Of a DNA stretch of 64,000 nt, positions 27,511 through 44,009 are shown in pieces. How positions within the stretch are numbered: the stretch's first letter is position 1; every line of letters starts with the position of its first letter. The position numbers and the translations under genes were made by a program. The stretch is from Gammaproteobacteria bacterium (GTDB lineage: Bacteria > Pseudomonadota > Gammaproteobacteria > Steroidobacterales > Steroidobacteraceae): assembly GCA_037443765.1 (NCBI GenBank), contig JBBINS010000002.1, positions 7,820 to 71,819 on the forward strand. The letters are read 5' to 3'. The notes beneath the pieces are model-generated. The model ran no database searches, had not been told where the DNA came from, and worked only from the letters and a program-made list of their open reading frames with translations.

Positions 27511-27677
27511 CGTCCGAGCCTTTCTGGTCATGCGCGCCGGAGCGCGCCGGTAAGCCAAAGCAGCCAGCGGGGCAGCCGGAGCGCGGAGCGCATCGCGGTG
27601 CGGCGACGCGAGCCTCTGCCGCAGTCGAGCATCGCCATTGCAATCCGAGGGCTGTCCATCGCGGTCTCCGTCAGTCG

Positions 27678-28587: not shown

Positions 28588-29952
28588 TCACGCGCCGTCG
28601 GCTCGCTCGCCGTTGCGATGCAGGCGTTCGAGGAGCCCGCGCAGCGCGCTGCGGGCCTGTGCCGCGGGCAGGAGGCCCTGCTCGGCGACGATCCGCGTCA
28701 GCTCGTCGAGTGACCGCCGCCCGTCGACGAGCGCGAGCAGCACGGCCTGGATGCGGCTGGCGTCCGCCGCGAGCGCCAGCGCGTCGGAGCGCGGCACGGG
28801 CACGGAACCGTCTCGCAACCACGGCGGCGCGGTGGACTCCTCCGGCTCGCGCGGTCCGCGGCGACGCTTGTCGGCCGCAAACAGCGCCACCGTCTCGACG
28901 CGGCCGTGCCGGCTCGCGGGTGAGCGCATGTAGGGCAGCGTGGCATCGCGCTGCGAGGCGACCTCGAAGCCCGCCGCGGTCACGATGTCGCGCACCTCCT
29001 CGGGCCCGTACCGGAGACCCGGGCGGCGCCACGGGAACGCGAGCGACCCGAAGTTGACCCAGCGCCCCCCCGGCACGAGCAACCGGTTGATCGCGAGCGC
29101 GACCGATTCAAAATCGAGGTCGACGATGTCGATGAGCCACGGCGTGACGACCGCGTCGAAGCTCTGCGCCGCAAACGGCGCGCGCCAGGCGTCGGCAAAC
29201 ACGAGCTCGAGGCCCGGCCGTGCGGGCGCCGGCGCCGCCAGCTCGCGCCGGATGGCTGCATCGGCGCCCGTGCGCGGGGCGATCGGGAACTCGTACAGCT
29301 CGACCCGGCCGCCACGGACCACACGCTCGGCGACGAGCAGCAGCAGCGGGTTGATGTCGAGCGCGACGGTCAGCGACTGCGCACCGTGTTGGTGCAGGTC
29401 GTACGCGAGCCGTCCGCCGCCGGCGCCGAGCACGAGCAAGCGCCCGCCTCGCCCGGCGAGCGCCGCCGCCACCTCCGCGTGCGAGGCTTCGTTCTCCTCG
29501 GTGCCCCAGCACCAGTCGCGGTGCACGTTGGCGTAGTAGGAATGCAGGTCCTGGCTGAGGGGCAGGCGCTCGCCGAACGCGAGCGGCGTCGCGCGCGGCA
29601 TCGGCAGCGGCGCGAGCATCAGCGGCTGCAGCAGGAGCCGCACCAGGCGTGCCTGCTCGCGGTAGGCGTCGCGGAGCGCGACCAGCCGGCTTCGGGTGCT
29701 GTCCCGGGGGGCAATCACCAGGTCGGCCTCCGCGGCGCGCTCGGCGGCCGCAAACTCCTCGAGATACAGCGTCAGGCGATTGCGCCATTCCCCGAGGGCG
29801 AGTTCGGGGTCCGCGAACAGCCACGGCAGGCCGTCGAGCCGCGGGTACTCGACGCGGCAGCCGCGGCACGCAAAACCGTCGGTCGCCGCCACCAGCGGCG
29901 CGCGCCGGCAGCGCGGGCACTGCAGCGAGTCGAGGAAACCGGGATCCGCCAT
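28588..29952 (-). CDS. SAM-dependent methyltransferase with N-terminal zinc ribbon and C-terminal winged-helix-like tail
   Basis: CPRC...CRGC Trm112-like ribbon and LVLGAGGGRLAYDL SAM motif I. I preferred the ATG at 29952 over the TTG at 29970. Confidence 0.8.
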   Translation of the reverse strand: MADPGFLDSLQCPRCRRAPLVAATDGFACRGCRVEYPRLDGLPWLFADPELALGEWRNRLTLYLEEFAAAERAAEADLVIAPRDSTRSRLVALRDAYREQARLVRLLLQPLMLAPLPMPRATPLAFGERLPLSQDLHSYYANVHRDWCWGTEENEASHAEVAAALAGRGGRLLVLGAGGGRLAYDLHQHGAQSLTVALDINPLLLLVAERVVRGGRVELYEFPIAPRTGADAAIRRELAAPAPARPGLELVFADAWRAPFAAQSFDAVVTPWLIDIVDLDFESVALAINRLLVPGGRWVNFGSLAFPWRRPGLRYGPEEVRDIVTAAGFEVASQRDATLPYMRSPASRHGRVETVALFAADKRRRGPREPEESTAPPWLRDGSVPVPRSDALALAADASRIQAVLLALVDGRRSLDELTRIVAEQGLLPAAQARSALRGLLERLHRNGERADGA

Positions 29953-30032
29953 GGGCACAGCATGCCGCAAGGAGCCACCGGACGCAGCCCGGCCCGCCCC
30001 GGACGGGCGGGCCGCCGGCGGTCGGCGTCGCG

Positions 30033-31646
30033 TCAGCCGCCGATCTTGCCGTTGACGATCGGGGCGAAGGCCGTCAGCGCGTCGAGCGCCGAGCCCGTAC
30101 CGAGCGCCTGGTCCGGGAAGACCTGCGAGAACATGGCCTGCTGGCCGTGCAGCGCCATGTAGTTGAGGAGCACCGTCTGCACGAGCAGCAGCACGTTGTT
30201 CGCCGCGGGACTTGCGGACGCGTCGACGTTGCCGCCCGGGTTCGTGAATGCCCCGATCTGCTGGTGACGGGCCGCCGCCAGCCCGCCGGCGCCGTCGAGC
30301 AGCTGCGGCCGTCCGCCGGGGTTATAGACGAGGAAGTAGGTCGCGGCGACGCCGCCGTTGTCGCTCGTCCACATGAACTTGCCGCGGCCGTCGACCGAGG
30401 TGTCGACCTGGCCACCGGCGGAGATGCCGCCGTCGCTGAACACGTAGACCATCAGCGGCTTCTGCATGCGCGCCGCATATTCGAGGCAGGCGCCGATGCA
30501 GCGGCCGGCACGCAGGTCGCGCAGCTCGCCGGTCGCCCGGCCCTGTCCGTGGTAGTCGTAGCCGCCCATGCTGATCGTGCCGGCCCCCGCGTAGCCGTTG
30601 ACGACCATCTTCATGATCGCGGCCGTCTTCTGGAACTCCGGATCGCCCTGATACTCGGCCTGGCTGAAGATACCCGAGCCGCGGGTCGCGCTCTGGTCGA
30701 CGATCTGCGGATCGAGGTCGGGGTTGAGCGCCGACGGGCTGGAGAAGTTCTCGGCGAGGTACGCCGACTTCACGTAGTTGCAGTTGGCCGCGGACTTCAC
30801 GGCGGCGTCGGCCGCGAGCTGAGTCGAGACGTTGGAGAACTTCTGGCCGCTGATGCGCGACATCGACTCGAGCACCGAGACCGCGTCGGCCGGGTTCGTG
30901 AAGAGCTGGCCGAGCACGCCGGTGTCGACCAGGCCGGTGACGTTGCTCGCCTGGGTCACGACGGTGGGCGTCAGCGCCGGATTGACCATCGACAGCGGCG
31001 CCATCGAGTTGCCGCCGGACTGGCTCGCCTGCGAGCCGATCAGCGTCAGCAGCTCGCCCTTGGCGCCGGCCATCGCGATGCCGTACATCGGATTGTGCGG
31101 GTTCGTGTTCGTGTCGTTGTTCGACAGCGCCGGGATCACGACGCCGTTGGTGGCCGCCTGCGTCGAGGGCGCCGTCCGTTCGAGAATGCCGCGGACGTGC
31201 GCGCTGTCGGAGTGGAACAGCAGGCCGAGCCGGTTCTCGATAAAGCTGCCCGTCGCGGAGGAGTTCGGCACCATGCTGCCGGGCAGACCCATCGCGCCGT
31301 ACGCCGCCGTCGGCAGGAAGTCGGTCTGACCGCCGGCGCCGCCCACGAGCACGTTGGAGCCGGCGATGTTGCCGCCGCCCGCGAGATCGAAGCAGATGAA
31401 CGGGATCTTGCCGGCACCGCCCGTGATGCCGCAGGCGACCTTCTGCGCCAGGATGTCCGGATCGAGCGCCATCGCCCGCCCCGGATTGAGGAGCAGCCCG
31501 AGCGCCGTCGGCGCGATGACCGTGGCGGAGCCCGTCATGAAGCCCTGCGCGATGAAGTCGCGCCGCGTGACGGGACGCTTGTGGGACCCGTGGCGGATCG
31601 GCTCGTCCAGCTCGAGGGTCCGCGGCGGCTTGTTCCGGATGATCAT
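30033..31646 (-). CDS. Tat-exported DUF1501/DUF1552-like protein
   Basis: ATG at 31646 with GAGG upstream. Twin-arginine motif TRRDFIAQG, a GGGN loop near the N-terminus and an MGGYDYHG motif. Confidence 0.7.
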   Translation of the reverse strand: MIIRNKPPRTLELDEPIRHGSHKRPVTRRDFIAQGFMTGSATVIAPTALGLLLNPGRAMALDPDILAQKVACGITGGAGKIPFICFDLAGGGNIAGSNVLVGGAGGQTDFLPTAAYGAMGLPGSMVPNSSATGSFIENRLGLLFHSDSAHVRGILERTAPSTQAATNGVVIPALSNNDTNTNPHNPMYGIAMAGAKGELLTLIGSQASQSGGNSMAPLSMVNPALTPTVVTQASNVTGLVDTGVLGQLFTNPADAVSVLESMSRISGQKFSNVSTQLAADAAVKSAANCNYVKSAYLAENFSSPSALNPDLDPQIVDQSATRGSGIFSQAEYQGDPEFQKTAAIMKMVVNGYAGAGTISMGGYDYHGQGRATGELRDLRAGRCIGACLEYAARMQKPLMVYVFSDGGISAGGQVDTSVDGRGKFMWTSDNGGVAATYFLVYNPGGRPQLLDGAGGLAAARHQQIGAFTNPGGNVDASASPAANNVLLLVQTVLLNYMALHGQQAMFSQVFPDQALGTGSALDALTAFAPIVNGKIGG

Positions 31647-31668
31647 GATGATTGCCTCGATAGTTCCG

Positions 31669-34197
31669 TTACTGCACCAGCATCGCGGCACTGCCCGCGA
31701 CGGCCGCGCAGGCGGCCTTCGCAATCGTCGCGGTGCCCGTCGTATCCGCCGACACGGATGCCGCCAGCTTGTCGATCAGTGCGTTGACCTCGGTCGTGAC
31801 CGACGCCGCGGACGGCTGGGTGGCCAGGAACTTGCCCGCCGCCGTGTTGGCGGTGAGCATCTGGTTGATCAGCGGCGTGATCAGCGCGTTGCGGCCATTC
31901 GTGTCGTAGGCCGCCGCCGGCGCCGCCCCGAAGTTCAGGCCCGGGAAGTACGCCGGGGCGAGCGTCGGGTCGCGAACCAGCGCGTCGCAGTACTGGATCG
32001 ACAGCTGCGCGATCGCGGTCTGGTGCGACGCAACGAAGGCCTGGAAGTCCGTCACCGCCGGCAGCGACTGCTGCAGCTTCGTGTACAGCGCGCTGACCGC
32101 CGCGTTGGTCTTCGGCACCGTGGTCATCGTCGACAGCGTCGTATTGATCCGCTCGAAGGTCCGCACGCCGATGTCCGACGGCAGCGGCGAATCGGTCGGG
32201 ATCGGCGCGATCGGCGTCGGATCGGTGTGCACGTGGGTCGCGGTCCCGATCTGCTCGAACGTCAGGAAGAACTGGTCGTACGACGGCCCCTTCTGCAGCG
32301 CGATCGTCGTACCCACCTTCGACAGCGCGACGGCACTGACGGCGCTCTTGGTCGGGTCGAAGCCCTGGCCGGTCACCGTCGTATTCAGCGGCGCGTACGC
32401 CTGGCCGACCGCTGCCTCGGCGCCGTTCACGCCGATGCGCATGCCCTTGATGACCAAGCCGCTGTAGTTGACCGTCGGATCGAGGCTCAGGAACACCGGC
32501 TGGTCGAACAGGTACGAGTAGCTGTCGTACTGCGACACCACGAACATCACGTAGCTCTGGTTGAGGCCCGTGAACTTGTCGACGTTGAACAGCAGGTAGT
32601 AGCGCTCGCCGACGCCGGCATTGAAGTTGGACTGCACATCGCTCGCCGACATGGCCTTGTTGTAGAGCGCGACCATCTTGATCAGTCCCGAGAACGGCCG
32701 GTCCGACGAGACCTCGTTGCCGAGCACGAGCGCGAAGGTATTGTCCCACTGCGACAGCGAGCCGCCCTTCTGCGGGTCACCGCTCGCGACCAGCGCGCCG
32801 TTGACGTAGATCTGGCGGCCGTTGATCGGATCGTAGGTCATCACGACGTGCTGCAGCGACGCCTGCAGGACCTGCTTCGCGTTCGGCGTCGACAGCGGCG
32901 GCATTCCGTTCGCGTCGGTGTTCGTGCTGCGCACGAACGCGTCGTAGTTGTACTGCGTCTGGCCGAGCGTGAAGTTCCGCTGCGTCGTGCCACCCGAGTA
33001 GGAAACGATGTACGCCTGCGTCTGCGTCACGTTGGCCGGCGCGACCCACGCCTCGACGCTGTACTCGCCCGTCGTCAGGATCATGTCGTGCAGCTTCGCG
33101 CTGCCGGTGGTCGTGCCCTGCAGCTTGCCCTTGTTCTGCACCTGCACGCCCCAGCCGCCGACCCAGGTCACGTCGCCCGACATGTCGAGGTTCAGCGCCG
33201 GTTCGACGCCGCTCGTGTCGTAGGCGACCGTGCCGGTTCCGGTCTTGAACTCGAACTTGGCGATCAGCCCCGTCTCGACGCGCGAGCCGCCGTTGTCGAC
33301 GACGCCGTCGTACAGCGTCAGCGCCTTCGACAGGACGAGGTTCGGGTCGACCTGCGTGATCGGCACCTGGTTCGCGAACGCCTGGATCGCGGCCAGCATC
33401 TGGGCCGATGCCGCGGCGCAGTCGCCGCCCCAGCAGTTGTGAAACTCGTCGTGCAGGCGAACGTAGAACCGCGACAGCGCCGGCGCGTCGAGATTCATCT
33501 TCGGCTGCGCGGCCGCGTAGGCCGCGTCGACGTCGGACTGCGCGAAGTACGGCGACTGCGCCGTCACCGCGCTCGGCGAGTGGCAGCGCGAGCAGTACTG
33601 CGTCAGCAGCGGATACACCGTCGACGCGAACAGCGACGAGTTCGTCGGGAAGGTCCGCGACCCGCCGGCGTCCATGAGCGTCGGCGCGACCAGCTGCACG
33701 GCCGCCTTCGAGGCGCCCATCGTAACGCCGGCCCAGTTCTGGATCCAGGTCGTCATCGTGTCGGAGCAAGCCTGCGTGCTGGCGAGCCAGCAGTGGTGGC
33801 CGCTAGCGACCTTCGCGACGATCTTCGAGCCGGCGGGATTCGTGAGGTCGACCACCGTCTGCGCCGCCTGATAGGCCAGGTTGACGTCGTCGCTGCGGGC
33901 GAACATCGGGCTCTGGTTGCCCTGGATGTGGCACGCGCCGCACTTGTCGGTGGTCTTGACGTTGTTCCAGAAGTTGACGACGAACGCCTGGACGTCGCCG
34001 CTCGCCGGTGCCGGGCCCGTATAGCTCTGCGTACTGCTGCTGGGCGGCGTGACCGGGTTGGCGGCGGTCTGGACGCTGCCGGCGCCGCAACCGGCGACCA
34101 GCGCGCCGGCGACGACGGCCAGCGCCGCGAGGCGCAGTTGAGCCAGGACTGCCGATGTGCGCGGCAGGAGGGTATCGATTGAGCCGAAAGCCTTCAT
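31669..34197 (-). CDS. Lipoprotein with two CxxCH haem motifs and a LamG/concanavalin-like domain (842 aa)
   Basis: Lipobox LVAGC. CGACH at 33928..33942 and CSRCH at 33580..33594. LamG-like block EYSVEAWV...GLIKMVALYNKAMS. Confidence 0.8.
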   Translation of the reverse strand: MKAFGSIDTLLPRTSAVLAQLRLAALAVVAGALVAGCGAGSVQTAANPVTPPSSSTQSYTGPAPASGDVQAFVVNFWNNVKTTDKCGACHIQGNQSPMFARSDDVNLAYQAAQTVVDLTNPAGSKIVAKVASGHHCWLASTQACSDTMTTWIQNWAGVTMGASKAAVQLVAPTLMDAGGSRTFPTNSSLFASTVYPLLTQYCSRCHSPSAVTAQSPYFAQSDVDAAYAAAQPKMNLDAPALSRFYVRLHDEFHNCWGGDCAAASAQMLAAIQAFANQVPITQVDPNLVLSKALTLYDGVVDNGGSRVETGLIAKFEFKTGTGTVAYDTSGVEPALNLDMSGDVTWVGGWGVQVQNKGKLQGTTTGSAKLHDMILTTGEYSVEAWVAPANVTQTQAYIVSYSGGTTQRNFTLGQTQYNYDAFVRSTNTDANGMPPLSTPNAKQVLQASLQHVVMTYDPINGRQIYVNGALVASGDPQKGGSLSQWDNTFALVLGNEVSSDRPFSGLIKMVALYNKAMSASDVQSNFNAGVGERYYLLFNVDKFTGLNQSYVMFVVSQYDSYSYLFDQPVFLSLDPTVNYSGLVIKGMRIGVNGAEAAVGQAYAPLNTTVTGQGFDPTKSAVSAVALSKVGTTIALQKGPSYDQFFLTFEQIGTATHVHTDPTPIAPIPTDSPLPSDIGVRTFERINTTLSTMTTVPKTNAAVSALYTKLQQSLPAVTDFQAFVASHQTAIAQLSIQYCDALVRDPTLAPAYFPGLNFGAAPAAAYDTNGRNALITPLINQMLTANTAAGKFLATQPSAASVTTEVNALIDKLAASVSADTTGTATIAKAACAAVAGSAAMLVQ
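33373..33960 (-). repeat. Tandem duplicated CxxCH module inside the LamG lipoprotein (protein-level repeat)
   Basis: Two ~80-aa units share the pattern CxxCH-x(5-8)-SP[MY]FA[RQ]SD-x3-AYxAAQ-x(5)-[DN]L-x2-PAxS-x(8-10)-[HF]H[CN]CW-x(5-8)-C. Confidence 0.6.
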
Positions 34198-34210
34198 GTT
34201 CGATACTCCC

Positions 34211-35431
34211 TCAATTACCCATGCAGTAGGCAGCGGTCTCGGCGAACACGTTCTTCAGGGAGTAGCCCTGCGTGAAGTGCCCGACCATCGTGCTGACCTG
34301 GTTACGATCGGCGGCGTTCGACGGCGCGCGTAGGCAGACATTCGTGAACACCTTCTGGACCTGGCACTGCGCGAACTGGGCGCTCGCGCCGAACTCGGCG
34401 CCGAGCGACTTGGCGCCGTTGCCGCTACCGGGCTGCGACTGGTCCCAGCCCATCAGGGCGTTCTGGCCGGCGCGCCAGCGGTTGTCCCAGTGATCATCCG
34501 GCGTGATGTACCCCTGGGGGAACACGGTGTTGTTGTGGAAGTACTTGCCGACGACAGTGCCCGGCGTGTACGCGATCGCGCCGTTGTCGGTCGTGGTCGT
34601 GTCGATGTAGTCGTAGAAGGCGAAGGCCTGGGCCATCGGATCCATGCCGGAGTGGCAGCCGACGCAGTTGTTCAGGAACACGCGGCTGTCGCCGCCCGGG
34701 CTGCGGCTGACGTCCTGGCGGATCCGGTCGGTCGGCCGGCTCGTGTCCATCACCTGCGCCAGGTCCGTGCACATGTGGTTGATCATCGTGAAGCGGAACA
34801 TCCGACGGTTCGTACCGGCGCTGAAGAACGCGCGGGCGGCGGCGCGGGTCGTCAGCACGCCCGCGGTCGCGGCGGCCGGCAGCCCGGTCGTCGCGGACTG
34901 GGGGGCGCTGACCAGCACGTCGCGCAGGTTCAGCGACTGCGCTTCCATCTGCACGTAGTGATCGTTGGCGGAGTTCGAGTAGGCCGGCAGCCCGAGGCCG
35001 CTCTTGCCGACATAGATGATGTCGGCCGACAACACCGTATTGAACGGCACCTCGTCGCGCACCATGCCGACGACGGTCGCGACGTAGTCGTTGAGGGGCG
35101 CGAAGGCGGTCTGGTCCGTGTTCGTCCACGGCATCACGAAATTCTTCAGCACGACCGAGTAGAAGTTGCCGTTGGCATCGTCGATTGCGAGCAGCGCGGC
35201 ACCCTTTGCATCGCCGCCGCCGATCTTCGCCTGCATGGCGTCGAGCACGGCCTGCGTCGGCGGCGCGCCGTTCAGCCGGTCGTGGATGCGCATCGCCTGC
35301 TCGCGCGACGCCGCGAGCGCCTGCCCGGCCGGCATCGCCAGCACCGCGAGCAGCAGCGCGAGCAACGTCGCGCTCATCGCCCGCGTCGGGCGTGCTCCGT
35401 TCGTCTGCCTCATTTGCATCGCTGCGTTCAT
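34211..35431 (-). CDS. Secreted monohaem protein, DUF1588/DUF1585-like
   Basis: Signal peptide (ATLLALLLAVLAMPAGQALA). CVGCH at 34652..34666 followed by SGMDPMAQAFAFYD. The start is uncertain. Confidence 0.7.
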   Translation of the reverse strand: MNAAMQMRQTNGARPTRAMSATLLALLLAVLAMPAGQALAASREQAMRIHDRLNGAPPTQAVLDAMQAKIGGGDAKGAALLAIDDANGNFYSVVLKNFVMPWTNTDQTAFAPLNDYVATVVGMVRDEVPFNTVLSADIIYVGKSGLGLPAYSNSANDHYVQMEAQSLNLRDVLVSAPQSATTGLPAAATAGVLTTRAAARAFFSAGTNRRMFRFTMINHMCTDLAQVMDTSRPTDRIRQDVSRSPGGDSRVFLNNCVGCHSGMDPMAQAFAFYDYIDTTTTDNGAIAYTPGTVVGKYFHNNTVFPQGYITPDDHWDNRWRAGQNALMGWDQSQPGSGNGAKSLGAEFGASAQFAQCQVQKVFTNVCLRAPSNAADRNQVSTMVGHFTQGYSLKNVFAETAAYCMGN

Positions 35432-35760
35432 GGCAACTCACTCGCGGTCAGATTGAAACTCGAAACGACTATATCGATAGGCATTCGCAACGGTAATGTC
35501 TCAGGACTGCGACATTCGCGCAGATGTGAATCCCATCTCAGACCACATGAAAGTCGCTGTGCTGCGACATTACGGGCGGTGGGCGGTGCGGGTTACTCTC
35601 GCGTTATTCGAAGGCCTCGGAACACATGAATACGGGATTCGTCATGGCCGAGGCTGTGAGCGTGTTAACAGAATCTGGTGTCGGCGGACGACATGATGCG
35701 GTTCGCTTCACTCGTGCTGCGCGCTTCACGCGCGGCGCGAGCGGCGCGGCCGAAGCGAGG

Positions 35761-38634
35761 ATGCGGATGGATACGTGGAACGGAACACTGCTGGTACGCG
35801 CGCAGCGCCTGCTCGTCGTCGGCATCGTCGCGGTGCTCGCAGCCGCGTGCTCGAGTAGCAGCGGCACCGCCGGCGGCGGCAACAGCGGCATCAGCCTCGG
35901 TAGCGGCGGGTCGACGAACGACCCGGTGTCGCCGGACTTCGCGATCGCCTACATCAAGCGCACGCTGCCGAAGGCCGCCGACCCGAACGCGATCACGCTC
36001 GTCGACGACCTGCGCGTACAGCGTGTTTGGAACGGCACCGCGGATGTCATCGTGCGCGAGAGCGCGAGCCCGTCGGCCGGCGAGAAGAACATCACGGCGG
36101 CGCTCGCCTGCCCGCTGGCGTCGGACCCCAACCAGAATTCGGGACCCGACCACGACGTGCGCGATCTCGACACCTCCTTCGATGGCGCGAAGCTCGTGTT
36201 CTCGTTCCGCTGCCGCCCGATCAAGAACGCCAAGGAATCGCAGCAGCCGCGCTGGACGATCTTTGAGTACAATCACGCGACCGGCAAGCTGCGCCAGGTC
36301 ATCTCGGATCCGATCGCGGCCGCGCTCGGCCACGACGTCGGCCCGCACTACCTGCCCGACGGCCGCCTCGTGTTCTCGTCGTCACGTCAGCACGACGCCA
36401 AGGCGGTGCTGATCGACGAGGGCAAGGCTCAGTTCTCTGCCGGCATCGAGGGCGACCGCAACCTGCCGGCGTTCGTGCTTCACGTGATGACGATCGCGGA
36501 CGCCAACGGCAACCCCGTCGACGGCAGCACCAGCATCCGGCAGATCTCCTTCAATACGGGCCACGATCTCGACCCGTCCGTGCTCAACGACGGCCGCATC
36601 GTGTTCACGCGCTGGGACCAGAACTCCGGTGCCGGCATGCACCTCTACGCCATCGACCCCGACGGCGGCGACATGCAACTGCTGTACGGACGCAACAGCC
36701 ACGACACGGGCAACCCGACGACGGCGCAGGGCGGCTCGCTGGTTCAATTCACGCAGGCGCGGGCGCGGCCGGATGGCAAAGTCGTCGCGCTGCTGCTGCC
36801 GTTCATGGGGACGAACTTCGGCGGCGACATCGCCCTGATCGACTCGGCCAGCTGGGTCGAGAACCTGCAGAGCGTGCTCGGCGCGACCGTGGCGCCGGGC
36901 GCGACCGGTCAGGTACGGATGGTGGTCAACGACGTCATCACGACACAGGCGCCGACCGCCAATCCGAACGCGCCGGCGGGCACGCCGGCGCCCTCCGCGC
37001 CGGCCTCGCCCGGCGGCCGCTTCTCGAGCGTCTATCCGCTGTGGGACGGGACCAACCGGCTGCTCGTCACATGGTCGCAGTGCCGGCTGACGATCCAGAC
37101 CCTCGTCGTCCCCTGCACCTCGGACAACCTCGCGAACGCCACGGCCGTGCCGGCTCCGACGATCTACAGCGTCTGGATCTACGACCCCACCAACAACACG
37201 CAGCTGCCCATCGCGCCGCCGGTCGAGGGCATCATGTACACGAACGTGGTCGCGCTGCAGCCGCGACTGCCGACCCCGACGCCGATCCCGGACGCCCAGC
37301 CGAGCACGACCGGGTCCTATACGTTCACGCTCGCCGCCGAGGGCGTCGGCATCCTCGATATAAAGAGCGTCTACGACTTCGACGGCGTCGACACGGCGCC
37401 GGGCGGCATCGCCGCCGTCCGCGACCCGACGACGCGCGTGGCGAGCCCGACCCGGCCGCGCTTCGTGCGCATCGAGAAGGCCGTGAGCCTGCCCGACAAG
37501 GAGGTGCTGCCGAACGCCGCCCTCCCCAACTTCGCCTTCGGCGCCGCCGGCAACTTCATGCGCGAAATCATCGGCTACGCGCCGGTGGAACCGGACGGCT
37601 CGGTGCGTGTGACGGTGCCGTCGAATATTCCCTTCCAGATCAGCATCCTCGATGCCAACGGCCGGCGCCTCGACGGCGCCTTCCCGCGTCATCGCGCCTG
37701 GCTGCAGGTCCGCACTGGCGAGACGGTGGTCTGCAACGGCTGCCACACCCAGCAGCAGATTCCGCCGTCGAATTCGCACGGCCGCACGGGACTGTTCTCG
37801 CTCGTGAATACGGGTGCAGCCGCCGGCGTGGCGTTCCCGAACACGGCCCTGCAAGTGACCAACCGCACCGGTGCCAACGTGGCCCCGGCCCGCCTGCCGA
37901 ACGGCGGCGAAACGATGGCCGAGTACCGCGCCGCGGAGCAGGTCACCTGCGTCGACGTGGCGTGCTCGGCCAACCCGGCGGTCGATCTCGTCTTCGCCGA
38001 CGTATGGACGATCACCGGCGTGGGCACGGCCGATCCGGCGTTCTCATGGACCTACGCGCAGCTTGGGACGCCCGCCCCGGTCCGCGCCGACTGCGAGACC
38101 AACTGGCAGGGCAACTGCCGGATCACGATCCATTACCCGCTGCACATCGCCCCGCTCTGGACCAGTCCGCGGTCGACCATCACCGCGATCGACCCGACGT
38201 CGACGGTGGCGTACACGACCTGCACGGGCTGTCACAGCCCCAAGACGACCGCGGGCGTCAAGCAGGTCCCCGCCGGCCAGCTCGACCTCTCCAGCTCGCC
38301 GGCCTCGACCAATCCCTGCGTCCAGCAGGAGTTCACGTCCTTCTGCCAGCTGCTGTTCCCGCACCCGCAGCTCGACCCTGTTACTATGCAGCCGGTCATC
38401 GTGCCCGGACCGCCGGACCCGGTGACGGGCCTGCCCACGCAGGTCATCGTTCAGGTCAATCCGCCAATGAGCGGCGCGGGAGCGAATGCTTCGGCGGCCT
38501 TCTTCAACGAGTTCGCCACCGGTGGCACGCACGCCGGCTGGCTGACCGGGGCCGAGCTGAAGCTGATCTCCGAGTGGCTCGACATCGGCGCCCAGTACTA
38601 CAACGATCCGTTCGCGATCCCACCTGCCAACTGA
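35761..38634 (+). CDS. Lipoprotein with PD40/TolB-like beta-propeller repeats and two CxxCH motifs (HzsA-related-like)
   Basis: Lipobox LAAAC. PD40-like blades. CNGCH at 37732..37746 and CTGCH at 38221..38235. Start at ATG 35761 or 35767. Confidence 0.8.
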   Translation: MRMDTWNGTLLVRAQRLLVVGIVAVLAAACSSSSGTAGGGNSGISLGSGGSTNDPVSPDFAIAYIKRTLPKAADPNAITLVDDLRVQRVWNGTADVIVRESASPSAGEKNITAALACPLASDPNQNSGPDHDVRDLDTSFDGAKLVFSFRCRPIKNAKESQQPRWTIFEYNHATGKLRQVISDPIAAALGHDVGPHYLPDGRLVFSSSRQHDAKAVLIDEGKAQFSAGIEGDRNLPAFVLHVMTIADANGNPVDGSTSIRQISFNTGHDLDPSVLNDGRIVFTRWDQNSGAGMHLYAIDPDGGDMQLLYGRNSHDTGNPTTAQGGSLVQFTQARARPDGKVVALLLPFMGTNFGGDIALIDSASWVENLQSVLGATVAPGATGQVRMVVNDVITTQAPTANPNAPAGTPAPSAPASPGGRFSSVYPLWDGTNRLLVTWSQCRLTIQTLVVPCTSDNLANATAVPAPTIYSVWIYDPTNNTQLPIAPPVEGIMYTNVVALQPRLPTPTPIPDAQPSTTGSYTFTLAAEGVGILDIKSVYDFDGVDTAPGGIAAVRDPTTRVASPTRPRFVRIEKAVSLPDKEVLPNAALPNFAFGAAGNFMREIIGYAPVEPDGSVRVTVPSNIPFQISILDANGRRLDGAFPRHRAWLQVRTGETVVCNGCHTQQQIPPSNSHGRTGLFSLVNTGAAAGVAFPNTALQVTNRTGANVAPARLPNGGETMAEYRAAEQVTCVDVACSANPAVDLVFADVWTITGVGTADPAFSWTYAQLGTPAPVRADCETNWQGNCRITIHYPLHIAPLWTSPRSTITAIDPTSTVAYTTCTGCHSPKTTAGVKQVPAGQLDLSSSPASTNPCVQQEFTSFCQLLFPHPQLDPVTMQPVIVPGPPDPVTGLPTQVIVQVNPPMSGAGANASAAFFNEFATGGTHAGWLTGAELKLISEWLDIGAQYYNDPFAIPPAN

Positions 38635-38638: not shown

Positions 38639-39412
38639 ATGCGTACAGTTCTGAAGCTCGCGAGCTTACTTATTCTGGCAACGGCGGCGGGACTCGCGCA
38701 CTCGGCAGACGGCGCGCGGCAATTCGACCGCGACGCCGGCCGCTACGTCGACGTCGCCGTCGCCGACCCCTACCTCGAACTGCACACCGGTGCTGGCGCG
38801 AGCTACCCGGTATTCCGCGTCATCCCGCGCGGCGAGCACATCGAGATCCTGTTCCGGCGCACCGACTGGTTCAAGGTCCGCGACGACCACGACCGCGAGG
38901 GCTGGGCGCACCGCGACAACATGCAGGAGACCCTGCTCGCGTCGGGCGAGAAGCTGCCGCTCGAGGACCTGTCGCACCGTGACTTCGACATCTGGCCGTG
39001 GGAATCCGGCGTCCAGAGCGGCAACTTCGGCGGCGGCAACGTCAACAGCATCTACGTCGGCTATTCGCTGAACCCGAACCTGGCCACCGAGCTCGGCGTG
39101 TCACAGACCCTCGGGCGCTCCGCCAATGGCGTGCTCGCGGTCCTTGGCCTCACACACTCGCCGCGTCCCGACTGGCGCCTCGCGCCGTTCGTGCAGCTCG
39201 GCAGCGGTGTCATCAGGATCCAGCCGAAGGCGACGATCATCTCGCCGCCGGAGCGCACCGAACAGGTCGCCTACTACGGCGCCGGCGTCAAATGGTACCT
39301 GTCGCGTCGCTTCATCCTGCGTGCGGACTACCGCAGCTACGTGCTCTTCACGCGACGCGACACAAACGAGGATCGGAACGAATGGAAAGCAGGCTTCGCG
39401 TTCTTCTTCTGA
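38639..39412 (+). CDS. Outer-membrane beta-barrel protein with N-terminal SH3-like domain
   Basis: Signal peptide, an SH3_3-like segment (YPVFRVIPRGEHIEILFRRTDWFKVRDDHDREGWAH), alternating beta-strand pattern and a C-terminal ...GFAFFF. Confidence 0.75.
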   Translation: MRTVLKLASLLILATAAGLAHSADGARQFDRDAGRYVDVAVADPYLELHTGAGASYPVFRVIPRGEHIEILFRRTDWFKVRDDHDREGWAHRDNMQETLLASGEKLPLEDLSHRDFDIWPWESGVQSGNFGGGNVNSIYVGYSLNPNLATELGVSQTLGRSANGVLAVLGLTHSPRPDWRLAPFVQLGSGVIRIQPKATIISPPERTEQVAYYGAGVKWYLSRRFILRADYRSYVLFTRRDTNEDRNEWKAGFAFFF

Positions 39413-40071
39413 TCGTCTGCGCGCTCGCGCTCGGGGGCTGCTCGATGTGGCCGTTCCACAAGAAGCAGCGCGCTGAGGAATTGCCGGTCGAGGCGACGTC
39501 TGCCGAGGGCACCGCGCCCTCGGTCGTCGAACCGCAGGTCGCGCGCCGCACGGTCAAGACGCCCAAGATAAAGAACTCCAACTTCGAGATCGGACCGTAT
39601 ATCGGCACCTACAGCGCCGAGGACTTCGGCGTCAATCCCGTGCTCGGGGCCCGCCTCGTCTATCACATCAGCGAGGACTTCTTTGCGCAGGGCCTGATCG
39701 GCCGGACCACGGTCGGCCTGACGAGCTACGAACGCCTGTCGGGCGGGGCGCAGCTGCTGACCGATAGTCAGCGCAAGCTCACGTATTACAGCCTCGACTT
39801 CGGGTACAACCTGCTGCCGGGAGAGGTGTTCGTCAGCCCGCGGCGGGCGTTCAACTCGGCGCTGTACGTGACCGGCGGCGTCGGCGCGACGCACTTCGCG
39901 GGCGACAACCGCTTCACGGTCGCGATCGGGGCCGGCTACCGCCTGCTTCTGAACGACTGGCTGGCGGCGCACTTCGACGTGCGCGACAGCATCTTCGACG
40001 AGAACCTCTTGGGCACGAACAAGACGACGCACAATCTCGAGACCGGTCTCGGCGTGACCGTGTTCTTCTGA
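39382..40071 (+). CDS. Outer-membrane beta-barrel lipoprotein (OMP_myx_plus-like)
   Basis: ATG at 39382. Lipobox LGGC, beta-strand periodicity and C-terminal ...GLGVTVFF. Overlaps the upstream gene by 31 nt. Confidence 0.75.
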   Translation: MESRLRVLLLIVCALALGGCSMWPFHKKQRAEELPVEATSAEGTAPSVVEPQVARRTVKTPKIKNSNFEIGPYIGTYSAEDFGVNPVLGARLVYHISEDFFAQGLIGRTTVGLTSYERLSGGAQLLTDSQRKLTYYSLDFGYNLLPGEVFVSPRRAFNSALYVTGGVGATHFAGDNRFTVAIGAGYRLLLNDWLAAHFDVRDSIFDENLLGTNKTTHNLETGLGVTVFF

Positions 40072-40096: not shown

Positions 40097-40606
40097 ATGA
40101 GCCTGAAGTCCCTGTGCATCGCGATCGCGCTTGCCGCGAGCGCTGGCGTTTCGACGACGGCGCTCGGCGCGGACCCGATCGGGCAGCCGGCACCGGCGTT
40201 CACGCTGCCACTGCGTGGCGGCTCCGCCCCGCTCGCGCTCGACAAGCTGCGTGGACAGGTCGTGATGGTCAACTTCTGGGCGTCGTGGTGCGAGCCGTGC
40301 CGCAAGGAGTTCCCGCTGCTCGACCAGATCTACAAGAAGTACAAGGCCGCCGGCTTTACGCTCGTCGGCGTCAACGTCGAACCGGACGCGAAGGACGCGG
40401 AGAGCTTCATCGCCAAGACGCCGGTGACGTTCCCGATCCTGTTCGACAAGGACAGCGCCGTCAGCAAGCTGTACCACGTCGCCGGCATGCCGACGACCGT
40501 GCTGATCGACCGCAAGGGTGTGCTCCGCTGGGTGCACCGCAGCTACGTGCCGGGCGACGAGAACGAGTACCTGAACCAGGTTCGCGCCATTCTGATGGAG
40601 AAATAG
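40097..40606 (+). CDS. TlpA/ResA-like thioredoxin-fold protein
   Basis: Signal peptide and a WCEPC motif (VVMVNFWASWCEPCRKEFP). Confidence 0.88.
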   Translation: MSLKSLCIAIALAASAGVSTTALGADPIGQPAPAFTLPLRGGSAPLALDKLRGQVVMVNFWASWCEPCRKEFPLLDQIYKKYKAAGFTLVGVNVEPDAKDAESFIAKTPVTFPILFDKDSAVSKLYHVAGMPTTVLIDRKGVLRWVHRSYVPGDENEYLNQVRAILMEK

Positions 40607-40608
40607 CC

Positions 40609-40836
40609 ATGACGAAGCCCTGCTTCCTCGTGCTGCTGGCAGTGATGGCCATGACCTCGGGCTGCGGCCGGATCCAGCCTTGGGTCAAGCCGTACGAGCG
40701 CGAGCGACTCGCCGACAAGGTCATGGCCTGGGACCGCGATCCGATCGCCCAGAGCTACATCACGCACGTCCACGAGAACCGCGAGGGCGCGCACGGCGGC
40801 ACCGGCGAGGCCGGCGGCGGCTGCGGCTGCAACTGA
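40609..40836 (+). CDS. DUF4266 small lipoprotein
   Basis: 75 aa with a lipoprotein-type signal ending SGC and the characteristic C-terminal GGGCGCN. Confidence 0.8.
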   Translation: MTKPCFLVLLAVMAMTSGCGRIQPWVKPYERERLADKVMAWDRDPIAQSYITHVHENREGAHGGTGEAGGGCGCN

Positions 40837-40865
40837 CGCATCGGGCGGTAACGGATTCCACGGCC

Positions 40866-42038
40866 ATGAGCTTCACCTTCAGCCTACGCCGCATCGCCTG
40901 CATGGCGGTCGCCTATCTTGCGGCGGCGAGCGCCCTCGCGGACGTCCTGCCCGAGGAGCGCGCCGACCTCAGCTGGCGCACCTACGACGGCGGCGGCCTG
41001 AAGGTGGAAGGTCCTGCGATGCTGGTCCGGAAGAACTTCTCCGACAACGTCTCCGTCAGCGCCGGGTACCAGGTCGACCAGGTGACGGGCGCCTCGATCG
41101 ACATGGTCGTGCTCGGCGCGAGCCCGCTGCACGAGGTGCGCAAGCAAAAGCAGCTCGGCGTCGACTACCTGTACGGCAAGACGACCTACAGCGTCGGCGT
41201 CGAGAGCAGCATCGAGAACGACTACGACTCGAGCAACGTCAACGCCGGCATCTCGCAGAGCATGTTCGGTGACCTGACCACGATCACGATCGGCGTCAGC
41301 CGCGGCTGGGACATCATCACGCGCGTCATCAACGCCGCGCACCAGAAGGATCCGAACTTCCGCAAGCGCCTAGACCGCAAGACCTGGTCGCTCGGCGTCT
41401 CGCAGATCCTGACGCGCAACCTGATCGCCGGCTTCGACTACGAGGCGATCACCGAGCAGGGCTATCTGCAGAACCCCTACCGGGCGATCCGCTACCTGGC
41501 CGCACCGGGCTCGACGATCTACCTGACGGCCCCGGAGGTCTTCCCGGGCACCCATACGAGCAACGCAGCCGCATTCAGGCTCAAGTACTTCCTGCCGTGG
41601 CACGCCTCGGTCGCCGGCAAGTACCGCTATTCCTTCGACACCTGGGACATCCGCGCCCAGACCGCCGAGGCCGACTACACACAGCCGTTCTTCGACGAGG
41701 CGCTGATCGCCGACCTGACCTACCGCTACTACAGGCAGAATTCGGCGTCGTTCTACTCGGACCTGTTCCAGTTCGCGAACCAGCAGAACTACATGGCGCG
41801 CGACCGGGAGCTGGCTGCCCAGGACAACAACACCGTCGGCGCCGCCGTGTCCTACGACTTCCTCAAGTCGAAGCACTGGATCGTGAAGAAGGCGTCCGGG
41901 TCGCTGCACTACGACTACATCATGTACAAGTACAAGGACTTCCGCGACGCGACGCAGCGCCAGCTGCCCGCCGGGACGGAGCCGCTCTACCACTACAACG
42001 CCAGCGTCGTGCAGGCGTTCGTCTCGATCTGGTTCTGA
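40866..42038 (+). CDS. DUF3570 domain protein (predicted flavinylated outer-membrane beta-barrel)
   Basis: Signal peptide, beta-strand periodicity and a C-terminal aromatic (..VSIWF). Carries the DQVTGAS motif. Confidence 0.85.
   Translation: MSFTFSLRRIACMAVAYLAAASALADVLPEERADLSWRTYDGGGLKVEGPAMLVRKNFSDNVSVSAGYQVDQVTGASIDMVVLGASPLHEVRKQKQLGVDYLYGKTTYSVGVESSIENDYDSSNVNAGISQSMFGDLTTITIGVSRGWDIITRVINAAHQKDPNFRKRLDRKTWSLGVSQILTRNLIAGFDYEAITEQGYLQNPYRAIRYLAAPGSTIYLTAPEVFPGTHTSNAAAFRLKYFLPWHASVAGKYRYSFDTWDIRAQTAEADYTQPFFDEALIADLTYRYYRQNSASFYSDLFQFANQQNYMARDRELAAQDNNTVGAAVSYDFLKSKHWIVKKASGSLHYDYIMYKYKDFRDATQRQLPAGTEPLYHYNASVVQAFVSIWF
41076..41096 (+). other. Candidate ApbE flavinylation site (DQVTGAS) in DUF3570
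   Basis: The codons gac cag gtg acg ggc gcc tcg match Dxx[ST]GA[ST]. apbE is the convergent neighbouring gene. Confidence 0.6.
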
Positions 42039-42042
42039 GTCG

Positions 42043-42061
42043 GGCGCGCCGGTCGCGCGCC
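42043..42061. terminator. GC hairpin between convergent DUF3570 and apbE genes
   Basis: GGCGCGC-cggtc-GCGCGCC, a 7-bp stem. There is no U-tract on either side. Confidence 0.3.
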
Positions 42062-42062
42062 G

Positions 42063-43040
42063 CTACTTCGGCGGCTCGAGGCCCTTCGTGTACCAGACCT
42101 TGCCGTACTTATCGACGACGACGGCGTCCATCTGCGGATACCGCTCGATCAGCCGGATCCCCTCGATCGGGCCCTTGATGAATACACCCTTCGACCAGCC
42201 CTCGGTGTCGGTCGCGGTCGGGCCGATGATCGTCACGCTACGCACACCGATCGGGCTCTTGCCGGTCTTCGGATCGATGATATGGTGGTACCGGATACCG
42301 CCCTCGTCGAAGAAGCGCTCGTAATCGCCCGACGTCGAAATGCCGACGTCGGCGAGCGGCATGCTGAGGACGACCTTGTTCTTGTTGTCGGGATTGCGGA
42401 TCCCGACGACCCATGGCCTCCCGCGCCGGTCGCCGAGCAGGCGCGTGTCGCCGCCGGCCATCACCATCGCGTGGGCGACCCCGAAACCCTTGAGAATCCC
42501 GACCGCCTGGTCGCAGGCGTAGCCCTTGGCGATGCCGCCGAGATCGATGCGCATGCCCTCGCGCGCGAACTTGACGGTGTGGTGCTCGGCATCAAGCACG
42601 AGGTTGCGGTAGTTGACGCCCGGCAGCGCCGCCTTGATCTCCGCGTCGCTCGGATGGATGTGGCGCGGGTAGTCGTAGAGGTAGCCGACGCTCGCGTAGG
42701 TGATGTCGAACGCGCCCTCCGTGATCTCGGAGTAGTGGATCGAGGTCTTTATCAGGTCGAAGAGCTCGGGATCGACCGCGACCGGCTCGACGGCGGCGTG
42801 CATGTTGATCCGCGAGAGCTGGCTCTCCGGCTTGTAGTGACTCATCAGCTCGTCGATGCGGCGCATGTTGTCCATGACCGCGTCGATCGCCGCCTCGCCC
42901 TGGATCCGGTCGTCGTGCCAGACCTCGACGTAGATGCGGGTCCCCATGATTGATTCTTCGCGATGCAGCCAGTCGGCGCGGGCCGGAGTGACTGCAAACA
43001 GCGACAGTGCGATGGCGAACAGACTCGCGGCAAGCTTCAT
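42063..43040 (-). CDS. apbE: FAD:protein FMN transferase
   Basis: 325 aa with a signal peptide. ApbE family motifs (IMGT..., DLGGIAKGYA, SGDYERFF, HHIIDPKTG). Confidence 0.92.
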   Translation of the reverse strand: MKLAASLFAIALSLFAVTPARADWLHREESIMGTRIYVEVWHDDRIQGEAAIDAVMDNMRRIDELMSHYKPESQLSRINMHAAVEPVAVDPELFDLIKTSIHYSEITEGAFDITYASVGYLYDYPRHIHPSDAEIKAALPGVNYRNLVLDAEHHTVKFAREGMRIDLGGIAKGYACDQAVGILKGFGVAHAMVMAGGDTRLLGDRRGRPWVVGIRNPDNKNKVVLSMPLADVGISTSGDYERFFDEGGIRYHHIIDPKTGKSPIGVRSVTIIGPTATDTEGWSKGVFIKGPIEGIRLIERYPQMDAVVVDKYGKVWYTKGLEPPK

Positions 43041-43181: not shown

Positions 43182-44009
43182 ATGACAGCGCGACGCATCG
43201 TCTACACGCTGGTGCTCTTCCTGGCCGCGAACGCCGCGGCCTACGCCGGCAACCGCGAAGAAGCGCGCATCCTCCAGGCGACCCAGGTGTTGCAGGACAC
43301 CCAGGCGATGCCGGACCAGCGCGTGCCGGACTGGCTGCTGCAGCGGGCGCAAGGCATCGCGGTCATCCCGAACGTGGTGAAAGTCGCCTTGATCGCCGGT
43401 GGCCGCGGCGCGAAGGGCATTCTTATGGTGCGCGACCCGCAGGGGCGCTGGAGCAATCCGGTGTTCCTGACCCTTGGCGGTGGCAGCTTCGGGTTCCAGT
43501 GGGGCCTCGAGGTCAGCGACGTCATCCTGGTGTTCACGACCCGGCGCAGCATCGAGGGTGTGACCGGCGGCAAGCTCACGCTCGGCGCCGACGCATCGGT
43601 CGCCGTCGGCCCAATCGGACGCTCGGTCTCCGGGGCGACCGACATCGGGCTCGCCGAGGTGTACTCGTATTCGCAGTCCAAGGGACTGTTCGCCGGCGTC
43701 GCCATCGACGGAACCGTGCTCGCGATCGACCATTCGGCGAACGCGGCGTACTACCAGCGACCGGGCGTGCTGGCCTCGGACATCCTGGCGCCGACCGCCC
43801 CCGCGCCGCCGCCGAGCGCGCAACGGCTGCTTGACGCGCTCCGTCGGTTGCCGAGCGGCGGCGATGGCGTTGCTCCGGCGGCGCGCTCCCCGACGGCGGC
43901 GGCCGGATCGCCTGCCGCTGCGGCGCAGCAAGCGGCGCCGGACGCGCGTGGTTTAGAGTCCGGCGGTGCGACGACGTACCCGCTCAACGACCCTAAGCCG
44001 CACCGCTAG
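43182..44009 (+). CDS. SYLF (Ysc84/DUF500) lipid-binding domain protein with Pro/Ala-rich tail
   Basis: Signal peptide plus SYLF motifs (GIAVIPNVVKVALIAGGRGAKG, GADASVAVGPIGR, YSYSQSKGLFAGV). Confidence 0.85.
   Translation: MTARRIVYTLVLFLAANAAAYAGNREEARILQATQVLQDTQAMPDQRVPDWLLQRAQGIAVIPNVVKVALIAGGRGAKGILMVRDPQGRWSNPVFLTLGGGSFGFQWGLEVSDVILVFTTRRSIEGVTGGKLTLGADASVAVGPIGRSVSGATDIGLAEVYSYSQSKGLFAGVAIDGTVLAIDHSANAAYYQRPGVLASDILAPTAPAPPPSAQRLLDALRRLPSGGDGVAPAARSPTAAAGSPAAAAQQAAPDARGLESGGATTYPLNDPKPHR

Follow-up and report, generated by a model that had tools for sequence, protein, structure and literature searches.

The window, a 64 kb stretch of DNA with a G+C content of ~69%, has its closest relatives among metagenome-assembled genomes (MAGs) of the Steroidobacteraceae, and the element in question is a four-gene module at 40097-43040 that is predicted to attach flavin mononucleotide (FMN) covalently to a secreted protein. 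Its genes encode a TlpA/ResA-type thiol-disulfide oxidoreductase, a lipoprotein of the DUF4266 family, a DUF3570 protein as the presumed substrate, and the FAD:protein FMN transferase ApbE. All four genes are intact, lie within 3 kb, and sit where an earlier reading of the window (the original prediction) had placed them; each product exceeds the gathering score of its Pfam family. We regard it as almost certain that the locus is a genuine ApbE/DUF3570/DUF4266/TlpA extracytosolic flavinylation module of a Steroidobacteraceae-type gammaproteobacterium. The module genes already carry annotation by domain name at NCBI.

The first gene of the module (40097-40606, plus strand) encodes a protein of 169 amino acids (aa) with a Sec signal peptide and matches to the Pfam families Redoxin (99.7 bits, 1.8e-28) and AhpC-TSA (98.3 bits, 4e-28). 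Its active site is WCEPC (W64-C65-E66-P67-C68). In NCBIfam the protein falls among the ResA/TlpA/DsbE-like redoxins, matching the ResA subfamily at 2.2e-32 but under that model's own equivalog cut-off, and its relatives in the PDB (3gl3_A being the best, at 1.5e-31) are DsbE-like, ResA, TlpA and CcmG proteins. The DUF4266 lipoprotein (40609-40836, plus strand, 75 aa) covers the full 50-position profile of PF14086 (80.3 bits, 2e-22). It carries the lipobox MTSG/C with Gly at +2 and a Gly-rich C-terminal tail of 18 residues, which ends in GGGCGCN (G-G-G-C72-G73-C74-N75).

The DUF3570 protein (40866-42038, plus strand, 390 aa) matches PF12094 with 142.4 bits against a cut-off of 25 (E 2.3e-41), which bears out the domain assignment of the original prediction; among the 2113 homologues retrieved, PF12094 is found in all matches listed. 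The ATG start at 40866 was favoured over a longer open reading frame (ORF) beginning with TTG at 40680, homologues being 384-396 aa long. A putative signal peptide is marked by a hydrophobic helix at aa 7-22 in the structural model described below and by a cleavage-type site, ALA/DV. The possibility that the conserved start of the mature protein, VLPEERAD, is a TonB box was considered and dropped, there being nothing for or against it. ApbE (42063-43040, minus strand, 325 aa; PF02424, 271 bits, 1.3e-80) is convergent with DUF3570, with 24 nucleotides (nt) between the two stop codons. Its Sec signal peptide ends in ARA/DW and has no lipobox, it aligns with the FMN transferases 1vrm_A (2.9e-47, aa 30-307) and 7esa_A (3.5e-45) of the PDB, and the conserved blocks GGIAKGY, TSGDYE and YHHI.DP.TG are all in place.

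This gene set was described in 2021 by Méheust et al. (eLife 10:e66878; PMC8238504), who reported that orphan apbE genes adjoin genes for DUF3570 proteins with two conserved [S/T]GA[S/T] motifs. The DUF3570 protein of Chlorobium luteolum is flavinylated on co-expression with its ApbE (ABB24424.1/ABB24423.1), and both of its serines must be changed to Ala before the labelling disappears (PMC8238504). In the published cluster ApbE and DUF3570 are joined by a thioredoxin-like protein (PF13899) and by DUF4266 with a C-terminal CxC, and the function was given as uncertain (PMC8238504). The survey that the original prediction invoked is this paper, and what it said of DUF3570 as an ApbE substrate, of the clustering with a thioredoxin-like protein and DUF4266, and of the uncertain function was correct in every part. 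No other paper treating DUF3570 in substance was found in our literature search. The window module is a further copy of this gene set and is, by itself, ordinary.

The likeness to the published cluster extends to the neighbourhood of the same four Pfam families, the tandem serines, the CxC of DUF4266, the extracytosolic location of the products, and the lack of an adjacent DsbD gene, which places the window module with the 316 published clusters that have none. The two differ in the redoxin, in the form of the second acceptor site (LGAS in the window), and in the setting, since the window module ends a six-gene operon with an HZS_alpha-like gene and genes for two small outer-membrane proteins (OMPs) and lies beside an operon for TolQR and tetratricopeptide repeat (TPR) proteins. 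With regard to the redoxin, the thioredoxin-fold gene with WCEPC that the original prediction described is present, but it is not of the published type: it encodes a TlpA/ResA-type Redoxin, and PF13899 (Thioredoxin_7) is not among its seven thioredoxin-type Pfam matches.

Two candidate acceptor sites were found in DUF3570. The first, D71-Q-V-T-G-A-S77 (41076-41096, plus strand), is a canonical ApbE motif and is predicted to carry FMN on Ser77; the original prediction had read it directly at this position and had numbered the acceptor correctly in the precursor. The second, V82-L83-G84-A85-S86 (41109-41123, plus strand), is a degenerate motif with Leu at -3, and FMN is possible on Ser86. The single acceptor motif of the original prediction must therefore be amended in its count, because the family has two tandem sites. 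ApbE recognises D-x-x-[ST]-G-A-[ST] and forms a phosphoester with the last residue, a linear motif of 7 residues being sufficient, and the substitutions D-to-A, G-to-A and A-to-V are tolerated with partial loss (PMC12052999). Given the amino-acid composition of the window proteins, chance would produce the pattern D..[ST]GA[ST] 0.003 times in 390 aa and 0.13 times in the 16,146 aa of all window proteins, and it was observed once. A search of the window for further ApbE substrates found the full motif in DUF3570 alone. Three other occurrences of [ST]GA[ST], in phosphoenolpyruvate carboxylase, a dehydratase and a Ysc84 protein, have no Asp and were rejected; 2.3 are expected by chance.

Alignments of 116 close and 72 diverse full-length homologues show that the acceptor positions are family features, as the original prediction would require of its motif column. 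The Ser77 column holds Ser in 116 of the 116 close sequences and Ser (63) or Thr (5) in 68 of the 72 diverse ones; at Ser86, Ser is found in 115 of 116 and Ser or Thr in 62 of 72. The family pattern is a tandem of D-x-[VI]-[ST]-[GSAN]-A-S-[IV]-D and, ~9 residues on, x-(G)-A-S-P, with A-S as the invariant core, and LGAS is the commonest form of the second site in the clade of the window (67/116). Ser at the acceptor position, which the original prediction had remarked upon, is thus read correctly and is unusual only by comparison with other ApbE substrates; it is not a peculiarity of the window protein because Ser is the norm of the DUF3570 family. A vestigial or fortuitous motif, with the window DUF3570 left unflavinylated, would agree with the rarity of strict [ST]GA[ST] among the diverse homologues (22/72 at site 1 and 8/72 at site 2) and with the tolerance of the family for non-canonical forms. 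We consider this explanation very improbable, in view of the low chance expectation, the invariance of Ser77 among close homologues, the intact secreted ApbE encoded 24 nt away, and the modification shown for a homologue. Modification of Ser77 is highly likely, and that of Ser86 is somewhat more probable than not.

The well-known ApbE substrates of the FMN_bind type (NqrC, NqrB, RnfG, RnfD, NosR and PplA) share with DUF3570 the transferase, the motif and a role, presumed in the case of DUF3570, as extracytosolic electron carriers. They differ in that their acceptor is Thr and lies in a soluble alpha/beta domain, whereas DUF3570 has no FMN_bind domain and uses Ser, at two sites separated by 9 residues in a loop of what is predicted to be a transmembrane beta-barrel. 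A large clade of related loci (L009-L063, many of them; for example L010:10001-11146) shows another variant of the tandem, with D-M-I-S-S-A-S at site 1, where Ser replaces the Gly of the motif, and K-L-S-A-S at site 2; no ApbE was found within 10 kb in this clade, yet its DUF4266 ends in GGGCGCN.

The structural model suggests what kind of protein carries these sites. An AlphaFold2 model of DUF3570 built on an 82-sequence alignment (predicted local distance difference test score 93.2; predicted template modelling score 0.85) consists of the signal helix followed by an all-beta structure with 16 long strands and a short hairpin, 207-211/219-223, which may add two more transmembrane strands (16-18). 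The sequence ends in ...VSIWF, with a C-terminal Phe. All 50 top Foldseek matches in the PDB are outer-membrane barrels, including PelB, FadL, AlgE, PgaA, OmpG, OprD-type porins and MtrB, with template modelling scores of ~0.5 and sequence identities of ~6-12%; a search of PDB sequences with the DUF3570 profile found no solved relative. The model makes it very probable that DUF3570 is a beta-barrel of the outer membrane, with 16-18 strands. In the eLife paper the word 'barrel' does not occur, and DUF3570 is not assigned to the outer membrane there (PMC8238504); no paper was found in a literature search on ApbE together with a flavinylated outer-membrane barrel.

In the model, the acceptor serines flank a short helix (78-82) that connects strand 3 (62-75) to strand 4 (88-103). 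Barrels assembled by the beta-barrel assembly machinery (BAM) have a C-terminal strand that ends in the periplasm, and counting strands back from the C-terminus places the acceptor loop on the cell-surface side for 16 as well as for 18 strands. The long connections 76-87, 200-228, 292-318 and 361-373 share the side of the acceptor loop, opposite to that of the short turns. Strand parity and loop lengths in the model thus make it probable that the flavin sites are on the outer side of the barrel. Conservation is similarly polarised: among 43 barrel positions that are at least 85% identical in the diverse alignment, 38 lie on the half with the acceptor loop and 5 on the other (Fisher p = 2e-6). 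They include Y40/G42, D71-D79, A85, R92, D119, P204-Y205-R206, P227, D258/W260, R287/Y289/Q291 and F296/Y297/D299. This distribution indicates that a conserved functional site, common to the family, surrounds the flavin loop at one mouth of the barrel. Residue 230 of the window protein (41553-41555), in the conserved PxTRT motif at the acceptor-loop end, is His where the family has a near-invariant Arg (R 110, H 11 among 121 close sequences, window included).

The generic resemblance to known barrels helps to delimit the system. The MtrAB-MtrC conduit (6r2q) is comparable in pairing a barrel with a periplasmic redox partner, a likeness of proposed function only, and MtrB appears at Foldseek rank 25; it differs in having 26 strands against 16-18, shares nothing beyond the generic barrel fold, and does not include DUF3570 among its members. 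In the module, two covalent FMNs and a dithiol would take the place of haems as cofactors. No CxxCH was found in DUF3570 or DUF4266, and the module falls outside the porin-cytochrome systems, which are recognised by a multihaem protein and a 26-strand barrel. The best structural matches are with systems such as PelB-PelC (9h80), LptD-LptE and AlgE/PgaA, which likewise combine a barrel with a small lipoprotein and TPR-rich neighbours. Unlike PelB-PelC, AlgE and PgaA, the window block has no genes for polysaccharide synthesis, and the end of the DUF3570 lumen is lined with invariant Asp, Arg and Tyr around the flavin sites.

A link between the DUF4266 lipoprotein and the flavin sites emerges from comparison of the locus across genomes. 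Related loci were collected from 82 species-level genomes (80 from a genome scan, together with L001 and L002) with DUF3570 identities of 44-87%, and they span the Steroidobacteraceae, Nevskiaceae, Ectothiorhodospiraceae, Ca. Thiodiazotropha and one Pseudomonadales MAG. The search profile, a 21-sequence alignment, retrieved the query's own DUF3570 subfamily only, to which these counts apply, and neighbours were counted over the loci with flanks long enough to show the gene. A DUF4266 gene is present in 77 of 77 loci, and a TlpA-like gene in 75 of 76, with CxxC in every one. In all 78 related loci in which the end of DUF4266 could be read it is GGGCGC[NST], and DUF3570 there keeps both A-S sites; the distant loci L085 and L086 show the same pairing of GGGCGC[NST] with acceptor serines, which makes 80 loci.

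The exceptions point in the same direction. DUF3570 has no acceptor serines in L083 (7783-9164), L167 (7771-9161), L168 (5684-6998) and L084 (1064-2323), a group represented by the proteins P0141, P0162, P0237 and P0267. In the first three of these loci DUF4266 matches positions 1-42 of the 50-position profile only and has no CxC; no ApbE was found inside their flanks, and the CxxC of TlpA is retained. P0267 is a fusion of DUF4266 with DUF3570: a lipobox is followed by a DUF4266 segment at aa 27-66 (24.4 bits, sub-threshold) and then by DUF3570, with neither CxC nor acceptor serines, and its locus has no separate DUF4266 gene. P0226 and P0172 begin with a lipobox and the RPYER motif of the DUF4266 type and are probable further fusions. 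The CGC tail and the acceptor serines thus appear to have been lost together ~3 independent times. Together with the fusion, these joint losses suggest that DUF4266 contacts the barrel from its N-terminal (periplasmic) side and that the CGC of DUF4266 and the FMNs act together. On this comparison we give even chances to a coupling of the DUF4266 CGC to the DUF3570 flavins.

As an account of the whole module we favour, as slightly more probable than its negation, a thiol-to-flavin relay that would run from TlpA through the CGC of DUF4266 to FMN at the outer membrane. ApbE in the periplasm would attach FMN (+438 Da each) to Ser77, and probably to Ser86, on the unfolded DUF3570 precursor. Modification would precede insertion by BAM because ApbE is periplasmic and recognises a short linear motif. 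The C. luteolum DUF3570, which is insoluble and was purified under denaturing conditions, is still flavinylated (PMC8238504), as befits a membrane barrel that is modified while non-native. Once BAM had inserted the barrel, invariant residues around its outer mouth would form a pocket for the FMNs. DUF4266, as an outer-membrane lipoprotein, would dock at the periplasmic end of the barrel or within its lumen, and its flexible Gly-rich tail would carry the CGC dithiol/disulfide to the FMNs for an exchange of electrons. Such exchange between thiols and flavins is the standard chemistry of flavoprotein disulfide reductases and sulfhydryl oxidases. The TlpA-like redoxin would keep the CGC reduced and would be recharged by DsbD/CcdA encoded elsewhere. 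Reducing equivalents would in this way be delivered to the outer mouth of the barrel, and co-conserved haem proteins are candidate acceptors in this clade.

Several observations weigh against the relay. The second acceptor site has Leu where the motif has Ser or Thr. ApbE lies within the available downstream flank in 21 of 72 related loci (of the 23 loci with any ApbE match, 20 have it as an immediate neighbour), and it was not found within 10 kb in the large clade with SSAS and KLS sites. The number of joint losses of CGC and serines is small, and the lineages without serines and CxC retain the barrel, the DUF4266 body, TlpA with its CxxC, and the neighbouring OMPs. Such retention points to a flavin-independent role of the complex and to a client of TlpA besides the CGC. 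No match to DsbD/CcdA (PF02683) was found among ~55 ORFs scanned over the 64 kb window, nor within 10 kb in the L001, L002 and P0105 contigs. In structural terms, the acceptor loop may cap the barrel or dip into its lumen, and the FMNs may lie too far from the periplasmic face to be reached by a thiol relay.

The direction of electron flow in the relay is a separate question. The known pathways from DsbD/CcdA to TlpA, ResA and CcmG resemble the module in their secreted W-C-x-P-C redoxin and in the linkage of DsbD to many published DUF3570 clusters; they differ in that the window has no DsbD/CcdA and in their clients, which are apocytochromes or copper chaperones, where the module is proposed to serve a CGC lipoprotein. 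TlpA/ResA/CcmG-type redoxins function as reductases. Among ~543 published clusters, DsbD is present in 227 and absent from 316 (PMC8238504). Because ~40% of these clusters carry DsbD, and because TlpA-type proteins are reductases, we prefer an outward, reductive direction, as a tentative choice to which we would give less than even chances.

The covalent FMNs could instead, by analogy with Erv/Ero1, act as a sulfhydryl oxidase for the DUF4266 CGC and pass electrons to O2, a quinone-like acceptor or adjacent c-type cytochromes, the oxidised CGC then serving as a disulfide donor or isomerase located at the outer membrane. The lack of DsbD in the window would fit such an arrangement, as would the strict co-conservation of potentially electron-accepting haem proteins in the clade. 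A CGC peptide studied by Woycechowsky and Raines in 2003 is also said to be fairly oxidising and to resemble protein disulfide isomerase (~-167 mV). The joint loss of CGC and flavin sites backs the pairing of thiol and flavin and is silent on direction. We nevertheless consider the oxidase unlikely, with DsbD as a source of reductant in ~40% of published clusters and with a partner from a class of redoxins that works reductively. The module is also found in strict anaerobes such as Chlorobium, so O2 cannot be its general acceptor.

The genes around the module are conserved with it. The module is the tail of a six-gene operon on the plus strand, in which neighbouring genes between 35626 and 42038 overlap or stand 2-29 nt apart. 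It opens with a gene (35626-38634, plus strand; translation probably begins at an internal ATG near 35761) for an HZS_alpha-like beta-propeller lipoprotein of ~950-1000 aa with two CxxCH motifs (PF18582, 3.6e-14), and three collinear weak matches relate it to the alpha subunit of hydrazine synthase (5c2v_A) in the propeller, the haem-binding middle and the C-terminus. The gene was found in 61 of 61 related loci, and its homologues have two CxxCH motifs (27) or one (35). Proteins with the HZS_alpha domain occur widely, with a known function in anammox only (PMC12758564), and no mention of PF18582 or HZS_alpha was found in the searchable text of PMC8238504. It is followed by a 257-aa protein with an SH3 domain and a small outer-membrane beta-barrel (38639-39412, plus strand; SH3_3 8.4e-10, OMP_b-brl 2.7e-5; 69/69 loci), and by OMP_myx_plus, a small outer-membrane beta-barrel lipoprotein of 229 aa (39382-40071, plus strand; TIGR04565, 1.2e-46; 74/74 loci), which is directly upstream of the redoxin.

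Three further genes occupy the minus strand upstream of the operon. They encode a monohaem protein of 406 aa (34211-35431; 58/58 loci, one CxxCH in 57/57) with a faint, sub-threshold PSCyt3/DUF1588 signal at the CxxCH, a dihaem LamG_3 lipoprotein (31669-34197; 55/55 loci, two CxxCH in 55/55), and a 537-aa protein with the Tat signal TRRDFI (30033-31646; 55/55 loci, Tat-like motif in 41/54), for which no Pfam, NCBIfam or PDB match was found. The layout of this divergent trio (30033-35431) recalls the cytochrome/Tat-protein pairs of planctomycetes, and no family membership was found. Downstream of ApbE lies a gene for a secreted Ysc84/SYLF-domain protein (43182-44009, plus strand; PF04366, 7e-38; BPSL1445 family, 5e-13), present in 59 of 67 loci and also at the flavin-less loci L083 and L167. 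The DUF3570 module therefore belongs to a fixed block with haem proteins, one of them HzsA-like, and small OMPs in 55-77 species. A gene for a 460-aa protein with a methyltransferase domain (28588-29970, minus strand) accompanies the cytochrome block in most, not all, related loci.

The company of haem proteins raises the possibility that the TlpA-like protein serves the maturation of c-type cytochromes, by reducing the CxxCH of apocytochromes, and is a bystander to DUF4266 and DUF3570. It is a redoxin of the ResA/CcmG/TlpA type, its gene shares an operon with the dihaem HZS_alpha-like protein beside two more haem proteins, and its CxxC is kept where the CGC is lost. On the other hand, the triad of TlpA, DUF4266 and DUF3570 is found in the cytochrome-less loci L083, L084, L085, L167 and L168 and across phyla in PMC8238504, and we regard a role confined to maturation as quite improbable.

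A second conserved unit in the neighbourhood is an envelope operon at 18309-28253 (minus strand) for a TlpA-like protein, a 217-aa protein, TPR proteins of 658 aa and 1131 aa, a 162-aa protein, TolQR and a TonB-like protein. It has one TolQ/ExbB-like and two TolR/ExbD-like genes. The C-terminal domain of the TonB-like protein matches the AgmX/PglI (GltJ/GltG) model with 67.8 bits against a cut-off of 40, and no Pfam or NCBIfam match was found for the 217-aa and 162-aa proteins. The TlpA-like protein of this operon (27678-28253, minus strand) is a second redoxin, with WCGSC, ~30% identical to that of the module, and its gene is next to that of the methyltransferase-domain protein. A search with the 217-aa protein retrieved 34 metagenome loci of 9 kb or more, and none departs from the gene order of the operon. 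In L083 and L167 the operon stands back-to-back with the genes for SH3-OMP, OMP, TlpA, DUF4266, DUF3570 and Ysc84, and its proteins are 52-79% identical to those of the window (79% for the 217-aa protein and its L083 counterpart); in the clade of the window, the cytochrome block is inserted between the DUF3570 operon and the TolQR/TPR operon. In nine metagenome loci of marine or sediment type (L163:7832-10014; L116, L137, L139, L148, L152, L154, L158 and L159) the TolQR/TPR operon begins with ApbE and a TlpA-like gene, and genes for Ysc84 and an M48 peptidase are close by. Within 10 kb at these nine loci, neither DUF3570 nor any other protein with the acceptor motif was found in real reading frames.

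The closest known parallel to this operon is the Agl-Glt 'core complex' (Luciano et al. 2011, PLoS Genet 7:e1002268), a complex of unknown function encoded by aglRQS, gltC, D, E and G and an extra gene, which are clustered in several Gammaproteobacteria (PMC3169522). Both have, judged by domains, one TolQ-like and two TolR-like proteins, a TonB-like protein of the GltG/GltJ type, two large TPR proteins and a small extra gene. They differ in that the window proteins score far below the cut-offs of the GltG, GltE and GltJ equivalog models, and the paper on the core makes no mention of thioredoxin or DUF3570. The resemblance, established at the level of domains and descriptions, is a lead rather than an assignment.

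These neighbourhoods bear on another explanation, in which the barrel and its lipoprotein are mainly a structural or transport part of an envelope machine together with OMPs, Ysc84 and TolQR/TonB-like/TPR proteins, and the flavins and the CGC have a regulatory or sensing role. Lineages without flavin sites and CxC keep DUF3570, DUF4266, TlpA, SH3-OMP, OMP and Ysc84 beside the TPR/TolQR operon; the fused DUF3570 is also followed downstream by genes for an OMP and a TPR protein; and the nine marine-type loci join ApbE and a TlpA-like gene directly to TolQR/TPR genes. The nearest folds, moreover, are polysaccharide-export barrels with lipoprotein or TPR partners (PelBC, AlgE and PgaA). The acceptor serines, the CGC and the surrounding residues are, however, strongly conserved wherever they are present, and covalent FMN is costly and is an electron carrier in every characterised ApbE substrate. 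We consider a mainly structural role unlikely as the leading explanation; it is also compatible with the relay, and the two are not mutually exclusive.

The relay and the envelope machinery can be combined in a broader proposal, which is rather unlikely to hold in its entirety. DUF3570 and DUF4266 may form a haem-free conduit across the outer membrane, with two FMNs at the outer mouth, the CGC of a lipoprotein that plugs or caps the barrel as a 'swinging arm', and TlpA for recharging, and in the Steroidobacteraceae and related bacteria may be integral to a machine made up of the HzsA-like and LamG cytochromes and an Agl-Glt-core-like assembly of TolQR, TonB-like and TPR proteins driven by the proton-motive force. 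If this is true, DUF3570 would be the first covalent flavoprotein exposed on the surface of a Gram-negative cell. If the flavins face outward, they would provide a new route for electrons across the Gram-negative outer membrane and a first clue to what the gammaproteobacterial Agl-Glt core complex does.

Cytochromes and thioredoxins are general means of moving electrons outside the cytosol, and flavinylation by ApbE has been put forward as a third. Besides the FMN_bind type, two families of ApbE substrates are known, of which DUF3570 is one. The four-gene module as first described adds nothing new in this respect, whereas four observations from the follow-up make the question of DUF3570 function more testable. 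A predicted outer-membrane barrel with the flavin sites at its conserved mouth, the co-variation of CGC and flavin sites together with the fusion, the block with HzsA-like and LamG proteins, and the link to an Agl-Glt-core-like operon were not found in the literature searched.

Two further features of the window were noted. The 24-nt gap between the convergent stop codons of DUF3570 and apbE is filled by a 7-bp perfect all-GC hairpin, GGCGCGC-cggtc-GCGCGCC (42043-42061); it has no T tract, and a terminator scan made no call there. At the far end of the window (58001-64000) the G+C content falls from ~0.69 to 0.58-0.63, in a region with a PIN-domain toxin gene (58594-59016), a fragment of the beta-lactamase family (57545-58087), and genes for an enoyl-CoA hydratase, an AraC regulator and a GcvT-like protein. 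This region of low G+C content may be foreign or recently gained DNA.

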